Origin: a virus
Lineage: Duplodnaviria; Caudoviricetes
Direction: 5' to 3' (one strand)
Virus record (IMG/VR): IMGVR_UViG_3300006127_001273
Coordinates: 1-64,000 of that record
Length of the DNA stretch: 64,000 bases
The notes beneath the pieces are model-generated. The model saw only the letters and a list, made by a program, of their open reading frames with translations. It was not told where the DNA came from and ran no database searches. Both the position numbers and the translations under genes were made by a program. Shown here piece after piece: positions 38,965-40,836 of the stretch. Each line of letters opens with the position of its first letter. Positions within the stretch are counted from its first letter, which is position 1.

Positions 38965-39360
38965 ATGTCACAACCTAGAAAATTTAAAAAAGAAGTTGCA
39001 AAATGGGATGATCCGAAAAAACGATTCTTAAGTCATAATCTTAGACGTGCAAAGAATAGAAAAGATGGTAAAGTATTTGAAATCGACGTAGAATACCTAT
39101 TTCGTCTAGGTCAACAACAAGGTTGGAAATGTGTATTCACAGGAGAACCTCTTGAATTTGATCGTGGAGGATATCACAGCGGAAAACGATGGTGGAATCC
39201 ACGAAGTTGTTCAATCGATCGAATCGATAGTACTAAAGATTACATACCGGGAAATGTACAATTAGTATGGTGTGTTGTTAATCAGATGAAAGCCGACATG
39301 GACGAAGAATTATTCCATGAATTTATTCAAAAGATTTATAATCAAAAAAAGGGCCCTTAG
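38965..39360 (+). CDS. HNH/His-Me-type endonuclease, probably a free-standing homing endonuclease
   Basis: QQGWKCVFTG...SIDRIDSTKDYIPGNVQLV..VNQMK beta-beta-alpha-Me pattern. Confidence 0.7.
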   Translation: MSQPRKFKKEVAKWDDPKKRFLSHNLRRAKNRKDGKVFEIDVEYLFRLGQQQGWKCVFTGEPLEFDRGGYHSGKRWWNPRSCSIDRIDSTKDYIPGNVQLVWCVVNQMKADMDEELFHEFIQKIYNQKKGP

Positions 39361-39371
39361 GGCCCTTTCTT
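39344..39371. terminator. Bidirectional intrinsic terminator
   Basis: AAAAAAAGGGCCC-TTA-GGGCCCTTTCTT between convergent genes. Confidence 0.8.
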
Positions 39372-39373
39372 GT

Positions 39374-40093
39374 TTAGTCTCCGTAAATTGCGAGAACCTC
39401 CTTTACTGCATCATGTCTTTCAATATCTCGCGCGTCAAATTGGACTAAATCAATATGTCTTAATCCTGTATTCTCTGCGAGTAGGGTACAGAAGTTAATC
39501 AAACCGTTATCATTTAAACGGTCTGCTTGGGCCAAATCGCCGGTTACAACCATTTTGCTATTTTCACCTAACCGTGTTAATAACATTTTCATTTGGTTGA
39601 TAGTTGCATTTTGCATTTCGTCCGCAACAATATAAGAATTCTTAAATGTACGTCCGCGCATATATGCAAGTGGACTGATTTCAATAACCCCTTCTTCTAA
39701 CATCTTATCGATGTCTTTCTTTTGATAATATTCTGCAAATACATCAAATATAGGTCTTGTCCACGGCGCCATCTTTTCATTAAGGGTACCTGGTAAGAAT
39801 CCTAAATCTTCATCTACAGAAACGGCGGGTCGTGTAACTACAATTTTATCGATCTTGCCTTCCTGGAATAACTTAATTCCGTATAAAACTGCCAACATTG
39901 TTTTACCTGTTCCTGCTGGTCCGATTGCAAATAGAATACTTTTGTCATCATCTTTTAATTTATTGACATATTCTTTTTGATTATTTCCTCTCGGAACTAG
40001 GGAAACGCGAGACTTCTTTGGTGGAAGGTATGTTTGATGAAAATCGATTACTTGAACGTCTGATGTGAAACGCTTCTTCACTCTTTTACTCAT
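39374..40093 (-). CDS. phoH: PhoH-family ATPase
   Basis: GPAGTGKT, TRPAV, LGFLPG, PLAYMRGRTF, DEMQN, LTRLGENSKMVVTGDLAQAD, RHDAV. Confidence 0.93.
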   Translation of the reverse strand: MSKRVKKRFTSDVQVIDFHQTYLPPKKSRVSLVPRGNNQKEYVNKLKDDDKSILFAIGPAGTGKTMLAVLYGIKLFQEGKIDKIVVTRPAVSVDEDLGFLPGTLNEKMAPWTRPIFDVFAEYYQKKDIDKMLEEGVIEISPLAYMRGRTFKNSYIVADEMQNATINQMKMLLTRLGENSKMVVTGDLAQADRLNDNGLINFCTLLAENTGLRHIDLVQFDARDIERHDAVKEVLAIYGD

Positions 40094-40174
40094 GTAGTTA
40101 AATCTCCTACTCTAATAGTAAAGTAGGACATGTAGTGACCGCCCGATAACTACAGAGGTCCTACAATTTATTTA
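40091..40174 (-). promoter_or_regulatory. Late promoter plus structured, apparently bistable 5' leader of phoH
   Basis: TAAATA (40169-40174, minus) followed by GUAGGAC/GUCCUAC and UGUAGU/ACUACA stems that are mutually exclusive with SD- and AUG-sequestering stems. Confidence 0.6.
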
Positions 40175-40251
40175 ATCGTTTAAAATAAAAGAAAACTGCT
40201 ACGTTATCATTTTAACCCAGCTAAATAAGTATAGTTAAACTGGAAGTTACT

Positions 40252-40836
40252 ATGTACGATGTATTAGATCTTATTAAAAATATTGACGATATCTACGAAA
40301 ATAATACAAGTCTTGCAATCCTAAAAGATTTTGAACGAGTATTAGACGAAATGGATATGTATGCTTACGAACACTGGATCGATGGAGAATTGGCATACGG
40401 GCCGCAAGTTGATCGACACTGGATCACAGCAGGATTTATGTGGCCAAAAACTAAGATGCCAAACCCGGAAGCAGCACGAAGACTGATGGAATTGGGATGT
40501 AAAGTAAAATATCAAAAGAGCCATCTTATCGAACCAAGAAGAATTCGTACACCTGAAGATTTTCGTCCAGGGACAAAAAAAGGTAAGTTAGACCATAAAC
40601 CAATTTGGATTGTCGAAATTCAAATGCCTAAGAAGATCGCGTTTGACATATATCGTGGGTACATGGACAAGTTAAAGGGTGAAAAACTAGAAGGAGTTGC
40701 ACCGAAGGAAGCGGCGCCGCCTGTAATGCCAGCTCAAATGGCTCCGGGCGGGGCTCCGGGCGGAGCTCCGGGAATGGCTCCGGGCGGAGCCCCTCAACCA
40801 ATGGCAGCAGGTGCTGCATCAACACCGGCAATTTAA
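40252..40836 (+). CDS. Hypothetical phage protein with APGG low-complexity tail
   Basis: 194 aa; TAAATA at 40222-40227. Confidence 0.7.
   Translation: MYDVLDLIKNIDDIYENNTSLAILKDFERVLDEMDMYAYEHWIDGELAYGPQVDRHWITAGFMWPKTKMPNPEAARRLMELGCKVKYQKSHLIEPRRIRTPEDFRPGTKKGKLDHKPIWIVEIQMPKKIAFDIYRGYMDKLKGEKLEGVAPKEAAPPVMPAQMAPGGAPGGAPGMAPGGAPQPMAAGAASTPAI
40741..40788 (+). repeat. 12-bp tandem repeat x4 (GCTCCGGGNNNN, encoding APGG/APGM)
   Basis: gctccgggcggg gctccgggcgga gctccgggaatg gctccgggcgga. Confidence 0.85.

Follow-up and report, generated by a model that had tools for sequence, protein, structure and literature searches.

The phoH gene in a 64,000-nucleotide (nt) stretch of IMGVR_UViG_3300006127_001273 (hereafter the window) is preceded by a leader of 74 bases (minus strand, 40164..40091) that represents a new RNA family of a known kind, namely a leader switch that sequesters the Shine-Dalgarno sequence (SD). 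All coordinates refer to the window; the full record comprises 116 kb and stems from an uncultured freshwater jumbo-type phage with double-stranded DNA (dsDNA). The 3' strand of a 5'-terminal helix and the arm of a hairpin that buries the SD share the word UCCUAC, and both pairings are kept in more than 94% of the pairing cells (hereafter cells) of an alignment of 107 distinct leaders from the clade of the window (alignment A1). More than 230 related contigs from phages and metagenomes carry the leader, in every case immediately before phoH. We tentatively read it, with a probability of about 40%, as a self-contained translational gate that would operate by three-strand exchange and work like the maturation-gene leader of Levivirus. 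The parts of the leader are listed in transcript order.

40158..40164, minus strand: strand a, GUAGGAC; SD mimic, 5' arm of helix P1 (Fold A) and of Fold C
40145..40154, minus strand: strand b, UGUAGU-U-AUC; 5' arms of helices P2 and P2a, paired only in Fold A
40131..40144, minus strand: loop GGGC and strand c, GGUC-ACUACA; strand c provides the 3' arms of P2a and P2 (Fold A) or is the partner of strand a (Fold C)
40123..40129, minus strand: strand d, GUCCUAC; 3' arm of P1 and, from its second base on, the anti-SD arm; the strand that is competed for
40105..40128, minus strand: anti-SD hairpin (B1), consisting of UCCUACUUUA, the loop CUAU and UAGAGUAGGA; the SD is buried in it
40104..40110, minus strand: SD, GUAGGAG, located 10 nt before the AUG

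An earlier note on this DNA, made from the sequence alone, had described two mutually exclusive folds. All pairings listed there are present on the phoH sense strand of the window, and 40164..40091 reads exactly as given. Fold A comprises P1 (GUAGGAC, 40164-40158, with GUCCUAC, 40129-40123; 7 base pairs, bp) and P2 (UGUAGU, 40154-40149, with ACUACA, 40136-40131; 6 bp). Fold B comprises the anti-SD hairpin, in which UCCUACUUUA (40128-40119) pairs with UAGAGUAGGA (40114-40105) over 10 bp, and a second helix of 8 bp, UGUAGUUA with UAACUACA, that ends at the A of the AUG. The minimum free energy (MFE) structure of the window is neither of these folds. It combines the 10-bp anti-SD hairpin with a 5' hairpin, here termed Fold C, that spans nt 1-33 and is built from GUAG/CUAC, GACC/GGUC and UCUG/CGGG, so that strand a pairs with GGUC-N-CUAC; Fold C is followed after 2-3 nt by the anti-SD hairpin. 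A 90-nt stretch containing the leader has an MFE of -26.5 kcal/mol, which lies below the values of all 200 dinucleotide shuffles (z = -3.15).

The alignment of the 107 leaders allows each of these helices to be judged. In Fold A (P1 plus P2), 98.8% of cells are paired and all changes are wobbles, and strand a pairs with 40129-40123 in 99.5% of cells or, in Fold C, with CUAC and GGUC. The RNAalifold consensus is Fold A (P1 plus P2) with the additional 3-bp helix P2a (AUC/GGU), whose variants ACU and AUU retain the pairing. Pairing in Fold C extends to 96.8% of cells, and one of its pairs occurs as U-A, U-G and C-G. The figure for the anti-SD hairpin is 94.3%; its upper stem has four pairs that changed on both sides (from U-A to A-U), and its loop varies in length and sequence. 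The first half of Fold B is thus conserved and covarying, but the second half is not: the helix of UGUAGUUA and UAACUACA is paired in 61% of cells, has its G-C pair in 3 of the 107 leaders, is found only in the window and its closest relatives, and was rejected as a conserved element. The idea of a two-fold switch holds insofar as UCCUAC pairs either with the 5' end or with the SD, the anti-SD hairpin covaries and P1 covaries across clades, but the OFF state uses Fold C. Overall, the comparison across related phages that had been proposed as a check yielded strong conservation, with covariation of the anti-SD upper stem and of P1 between clades.

An independent set of leaders was retrieved through the downstream protein. 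A search with PhoH yielded 413 relatives in IMG/VR, of which the best 80, with 78-94% PhoH identity, were taken. Among these best 80 of the 413, the leader is present in all 77 loci with intact upstream DNA. The core, from the promoter box to GUCCUAC, is conserved at about 100% in the 55 distinct protein-retrieved leaders; the third codon positions of phoH, the anti-SD loop and the spacer between SD and AUG are variable among them. Strand a does not vary among the 55, GGCGGUC recurs in 54 of them, and the SD is GUAGGAG throughout (GUGGGAG occurs in some pattern-retrieved leaders). The C of GGCGGUC is an invariant bulged base that is unpaired in both Fold A and Fold C. The base that follows GGCGGUC, opposite U16, is A in 25 and G in 29 of these leaders and never a pyrimidine, as expected for the partner of a U in P2 in a set that is unbiased in this respect. 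Strand b is at least 90% conserved, although it forms the apical loop in Fold C, and its variants UGUGGU, ACU and AUU preserve pairing. The conservation of strand b and the purine opposite U16 independently support Fold A. Strand d varies only by the wobble-compatible transitions GUCCUGC, GUUCUAC and GUCUUAC, which keep the pairing to both GUAGGAC and GUAGGAG. Such changes fit P1 as well as the anti-SD hairpin because the two partners are nearly the same word.

The tie between leader and gene also holds in scans that used the leader pattern itself. In viral contigs, 112 distinct leaders were found, 106 of them with a PhoH match downstream; four of the remainder reach the contig end yet show a phoH start, and two are too short for a decision. 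The metagenome contigs, which come mostly from lakes, gave 119 matches, of which 111 have PhoH downstream and four are truncated copies. No other gene context was found among the 119, the four non-phoH matches being GC-rich chance hits. The scan of 185,579 species genomes returned a single copy, on a 2.3-kb phage-like contig in a Flavobacteriales metagenome-assembled genome (MAG); a second match was dismissed as GC-rich and due to chance. The contig in question (JBBALS010000393.1, 2316 bp) carries the full leader together with phoH. It is most likely a phage contig that was mis-binned into the MAG and gives a weak host hint at best. One copy of the leader, a single model hit, is present in the 116-kb record.

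The leader lies within a 158-bp divergent intergenic region that phoH shares with a virion-protein gene (phrog_12928), between two late-type boxes. Given this position and its 7-bp inverted repeat, it could in principle be an element of the DNA, such as an inverted-repeat operator or a part of a divergent promoter, with no function as RNA. We consider this highly improbable. The wobble pairs (in P1, U-G in 31 cases and G-U in 8, 18 and 3; in P2, U-G in 47) would be A-C mismatches if read on the opposite strand or in duplex DNA; the stems covary, with loops of variable length; and both the orientation and the distance to the phoH SD are constant. The many G-U pairs therefore place the constraint on RNA of the phoH sense strand rather than on DNA, which bears out the RNA-level element that the earlier note had proposed for this strand.

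Further evidence for the 5' hairpin comes from other PhoH clades. Clade 2 was reached via a representative with 61% PhoH identity. In its leaders, the first strand is GUAGGGC, GUAGGAC, GUAAGG or GUAGAGC; it begins as far from the box as in the window and is paired distally, enclosing an inner hairpin. The 52 leaders of this clade contain 39 different P2 helices, and positions 4-7 of P1 show G-C, A-U, C-G and U-A pairs. Over all clades together, 97.5% of the P1 cells are paired and 31 cells have changed on both sides, as compared with 7.6 ± 2.2 in shuffles, none of which (0/500) reached this number. This establishes the hairpin at the 5' end as a real RNA structure that covaries. The P1 strands of the window are identical to those of clade-2 members in which P1 plus P2 is the covarying MFE structure. 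The loop of P2 in clade 2 also holds a "decoy" that is complementary to nt 1-7; 32 of the 52 leaders have a run of 6 or more. Its mean run is 5.6, as compared with 4.0 in shuffled sequences, and 22/52 leaders reach p <= 0.05; the decoy state is predicted to be 5.8 ± 2.6 kcal/mol less stable than the MFE structure.

The SD is handled differently outside the clade of the window. Clade 2 has a separate conserved hairpin (L210-L288, about 25 nt before and including the phoH start), in which UCCAU pairs with AUGGG, that is, with the start codon and the GG of a Gly codon, and the SD lies inside. This hairpin may explain the conserved MGA N-terminus in clade 2. In clade 3, the SD pairs with UUCUA, which lies two bases after an 11-bp 5' hairpin and does not overlap with it. 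The overlap of the P1 3' strand with the anti-SD is a special feature of the window's clade. No close cultured relative was found; the best is Pseudomonas phage PA5oct, with 56% PhoH identity. Its phoH (L289, MK797984.1 190292-191736, locus 204-234) is preceded by ATAAATA, a 5-nt spacing and the 8-bp hairpin GUAAAGAU-UAG-AUCUUUAU, and has a divergent structural-protein neighbour as in the window. The PA5oct paper reports sigma-70-like promoters only and contains nothing on phoH. A distant phoH leader (L301:277-376) has a 5' hairpin followed by a terminator-like hairpin and a seven-U run before the SD. The terminator-like hairpin is a possible transcription attenuator.

The order in which the folds would form was predicted for growing chains. 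For the window transcript, starting at G1, the MFE structure changes with length as follows.

Chain of 23-33 nt: Fold C
Chain of 41-58 nt: Fold A
Chain of 59 nt onward: Fold C plus anti-SD hairpin

The clade behaves alike at the intermediate lengths. Fold C is the MFE structure in 107/107 leaders once strand c is complete, and Fold A is the MFE structure in 104/107 once strand d is complete and in 106/107 just before the SD. At full length, Fold C plus the anti-SD hairpin is the MFE structure in 73 and Fold A in 33 of the 107 leaders. The predicted family difference between ON and OFF is 1.0 ± 2.1 kcal/mol at 37 °C, i.e. the end states are nearly isoenergetic. The barrier from Fold A to the OFF state is estimated at 7.6 kcal/mol for the window and 9.9 ± 1.6 kcal/mol for the family, and the reverse barrier at 16.5 kcal/mol and 13.9 kcal/mol, respectively. 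An RNA thermometer was rejected, the predicted family mean ON-OFF difference being 1.5 kcal/mol at 10 °C and 1.0 kcal/mol at 45 °C.

A gate based on three-strand exchange would use these states in the following way. The phoH mRNA would begin at or next to the +1 position of a T4-type late box and carry the 74-nt leader. In the ON form, strand d would be held in P1 by the 5'-terminal SD mimic GUAGGAC, closed by P2 and P2a (Fold A), and the SD would be free. In the OFF form, strand d would pair with the SD GUAGGAG, burying it in the anti-SD hairpin, and the freed 5' strand would pair with GGUC-N-CUAC (Fold C) and thereby lock this form. The growing chain would pass from Fold C to Fold A and then to Fold C plus the anti-SD hairpin. 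In new transcripts, the SD would thus be open for a short time before most of them relax to a closed or near-balanced state, and a strong late promoter would yield PhoH only briefly or at a low level. We infer that both folds may form in vivo and that timing, not a bound factor, may decide between them.

Several points weigh against such a gate. The error of the energy model is of the same size as the differences found, and the window is at the OFF extreme of the family, with OFF favoured by about 5 kcal/mol in the prediction. The modest refolding barrier corresponds to milliseconds to seconds, so that a purely kinetic gate may be too short-lived. Within the window's clade, P1 and P2 show wobble changes only. 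The anti-SD hairpin explains the changes in strand d equally well, and Fold A therefore owes its support to the conserved strand b and to homology with other clades. In clades 2 and 3, the hairpin at the SD or start codon does not overlap with P1, and the strand competition may be specific to the window's clade.

Some of these observations are what a static design would lead one to expect, in which a hairpin protects the 5' end, a fixed SD hairpin acts as a throttle, and the complementarity of Fold A is a by-product of the repeated words GUAG and CUAC. The stability of Fold C plus the anti-SD hairpin in the window, about 5 kcal/mol ahead, and the lack of double-sided covariation in P1 of its clade agree with such a design. 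Clade 3 has this layout without overlap, and the hairpin always starts 4-5 nt after the box, as it would in a protector of the ompA/aprE type. Strand b, however, would then be a loop, yet it is conserved at the level given above and changes only in ways that preserve P2 and P2a. Fold A is also the predicted MFE structure of 104-106 of the 107 leaders at intermediate lengths and of 33 at full length, and the P1 strands of the window recur unchanged in clade-2 members with P1 plus P2 as a covarying MFE structure. We regard a static design as unlikely.

The near-isoenergetic end states across the family also suit an operator worked by a protein, since a small binding energy would switch between them. 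The most interesting candidate is PhoH itself, an ATPase that is a predicted relative of RNA helicases: by binding or remodelling the 5' hairpin, it would shift the balance between Fold A and the anti-SD hairpin and thereby regulate its own synthesis. The leader is tied to phoH alone, each PhoH clade has a hairpin sequence of its own, the invariant bulged C of GGCGGUC is unpaired in both folds, and the PhoH N-terminus is basic. The structured RNAs next to PhoH2 genes (10.64898/2026.10.21.760802) add some plausibility, but these are long (357 nt), bacterial and themselves putative. The phage PhoH, moreover, is without the PIN domain of PhoH2, and alternative pairing alone already accounts for the sequence conservation. 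A protein-operated leader is rather unlikely on this evidence, and autoregulation by PhoH is speculation. A broader version, doubtful but worth stating, is that the leader is the cognate RNA partner of phage PhoH and that PhoH, or a ligand reflecting the nucleotide or phosphate state, remodels the equilibrium between Fold A and the anti-SD hairpin, so that phoH would sense its own product or the state of the cell.

The layout of the leader is likewise that of a translational ON riboswitch for a metabolite, in which a ligand would stabilise P1 of a Fold A aptamer and keep the anti-SD strand off the SD. The 3' strand of P1 doubles as the anti-SD, and its two pairings exclude each other as in an expression platform. 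The 42-nt core is extremely conserved, and the apo state is predicted to be mostly OFF. A search of the region 39900-40400 of the window against Rfam 15, with E up to 10, returned only three chance hits with 11.8-16.9 bits, as compared with gathering thresholds of 50-100, and none was obtained for 16 related loci at E up to 0.1. The earlier note had not recognised a known riboswitch, and the Rfam covariance models agree in giving no family match; any riboswitch would thus be a new class. In the literature, no description of a phoH riboswitch or phoH leader was found. Against a riboswitch, the bases that are conserved yet unpaired in Fold A (CUC of the junction, GG of the loop) nearly all pair in Fold C; a single invariant C is unpaired in both folds, and no ligand pocket is recognisable. 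Loops and junctions are not conserved between clades, as the variety of P2 helices in clade 2 (39 in 52 leaders) illustrates. The leader is associated with a single gene family in more than 230 contigs rather than with several, and it is absent from the cellular genomes scanned except for the one mis-binned phage contig. An orphan riboswitch is decidedly unlikely.

A late-type box precedes the leader.

40169..40175, minus strand: late-type box TTAAATA; putative +1 4-5 nt downstream, at the first G of the hairpin

The TAAATA part (40174-40169) lies 81 nt upstream of the phoH start codon. Boxes of the form (G/C)(A/T)TAAATA, apparently this phage's consensus for late promoters, were found upstream of about nine structural-type genes in the window, at 22-37 nt from the start codon except for one at 53 nt, and also before the divergent neighbour. 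Compared with these distances, phoH alone therefore has a long leader. The boxes on the other strand are given with approximate positions.

5087, 10311, 31089, 31675, 34227, 40222, 48123 and 50713, plus strand: late-type boxes

Between TAAATA and the hairpin's first G lie 5 nt in 148 distinct sequences of the window's clade and 4 nt in a further 13; in the other clades, the spacing is 5 nt in 50 sequences, 4 nt in 11 and 6 nt in one. The late promoters of phage T4 provide the basis for placing +1 relative to the box; by this analogy, the constant spacing would put +1 at or next to the first stem base. The earlier note had placed +1 near this base from the TAAATA box, and the constant spacing fits such a putative start. 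A T4-type late unit is marked by a TATAAATA-like box at -10 and no -35 element; here, the (T)TAAATA box is common to structural-type genes, and the divergent neighbour encodes a virion protein. A repeated element or general start of late transcripts was rejected as an explanation of the hairpin, as TAAATA followed by GTAG occurs once in the window, GTAGGAC is not enriched and the 116-kb record has a single model hit.

The further features of the phoH locus are as follows.

39374..40093, minus strand: phoH coding sequence; 239 amino acids, PhoH ATPase domain only, without PIN domain
39344..39368, minus strand: intrinsic terminator, AAAGGGCCC-UAA-GGGCCC followed by U7, read directly in the sequence
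40209..40238, minus strand: possible sigma-70-like promoter, TTAACT-18-TAAAAT, with 9/12 consensus matches; context only and not an established part

The phoH product matches PF02562 (E = 5.4e-72) and phrog_170 (E = 1.8e-74), and its AUG is located at 40093-40091 on the minus strand. The gene ends at the intrinsic terminator with its run of seven U and is therefore a one-gene transcription unit. The terminator palindrome, GGGCCC-UAA-GGGCCC, was also called on the plus strand. With runs of A and T on both sides, the palindrome at 39344-39368 serves convergent genes on both strands. In a consensus scan for sigma-70-like sites, the number found was not above that in shuffles.

The leader of the window contains an upstream open reading frame of 13 codons (40129-40131 to 40091, minus strand), with its AUG in CUACAUGUCC and a UGA stop that overlaps the phoH AUG (AUGA). 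A leader peptide was rejected, as most relatives have AAG where the window has AUG, and this reading frame is probably non-functional. About 25 nt upstream of the TAAATA box, a second conserved box with the consensus CAGTTTAYTATT is present in the clade (40186-40200 in the window, minus strand; alignment columns ~145-157). Possible roles are those of a middle-type promoter element or of a binding site. SDs of the GGAG type are widespread in the window, and they argue against a Bacteroidota host.

phoH is among the most widespread auxiliary genes of phages and serves as a marker gene in viral ecology, and we know of no established function or mode of regulation for it in phages. The leader provides a first regulatory handle on this commonest phage auxiliary gene, in the form of a compact, phoH-specific and extremely conserved RNA element that combines the logic of a ribosome-binding site with lineage-specific relatives. 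The question of what phage PhoH responds to or acts on thereby becomes experimentally accessible, and the culturable PA5oct is a tractable system for testing the leader family. As a gate, the leader would show in clean, natural form how a late mRNA of a dsDNA phage can switch by three-strand exchange. Should it be the RNA partner of PhoH, it would extend the reported association of bacterial PhoH2 with RNA to phage phoH and provide a first testable molecular function.

Several known systems share parts of this design. In translational ON riboswitches such as those of the adenine add type, the 3' strand of the aptamer P1 is the anti-SD. As there, one strand of the phoH leader has two mutually exclusive partners, the SD and the 5' strand of P1, the conserved core is compact and the default is predicted to be OFF. 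Unlike them, the phoH leader is without a recognisable ligand pocket, its conserved unpaired bases are explained by a third fold, and it has a single gene family and no Rfam match. Stem-loops at the 5' end stabilise the leaders of ompA, aprE and T4 gene 32 and need neither sequence conservation nor competition for the SD. The phoH hairpin resembles them in starting at the predicted first transcribed base, a position that is constant relative to the promoter in all clades, but its 5' strand mimics the SD and shares the partner of the SD.

Lineage-specific structured RNAs that adjoin PhoH2 genes were described in a preprint (bioRxiv, 2026; 10.64898/2026.10.21.760802). Like these non-coding RNAs, the phoH leader is a lineage-specific structured RNA directly beside a gene for a PhoH-domain ATPase. 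The PhoH2-associated RNAs are bacterial, lie beside PIN-PhoH genes, measure 357 nt in the lead case and have multiple stems with no stated SD-sequestering logic (10.64898/2026.10.21.760802). Here, in contrast, the gene is from a phage and encodes the PhoH domain only, and the leader of 74 nt stands outside that group.

The closest parallel to the proposed gate is the maturation-gene leader of MS2, in which the SD pairs with an upstream complementary sequence that comes after a 5' hairpin and can be hidden by a metastable hairpin (PMC4615214). The two leaders have no sequence homology, and the phoH leader belongs to a late mRNA that RNA polymerase transcribes from a dsDNA phage, not to a replicating single-stranded RNA genome. 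The metastable state of the phoH leader would be the long-range P1 with the very 5' end, the SD mimic, instead of a local hairpin, and its final states are predicted to be nearly isoenergetic, as compared with strongly OFF in MS2. As in the MS2 leader (PMC4615214), however, a 5' hairpin stands almost immediately before the sequence that pairs with the SD in the final fold, and the alternative structures are conserved. In the MS2 leader, the metastable structure hides the complementary sequence during synthesis and leaves the SD briefly open; the same is predicted for the phoH leader. The phoH leader stands outside the Levivirus leader family but, on the proposed mechanism, would work like its members.

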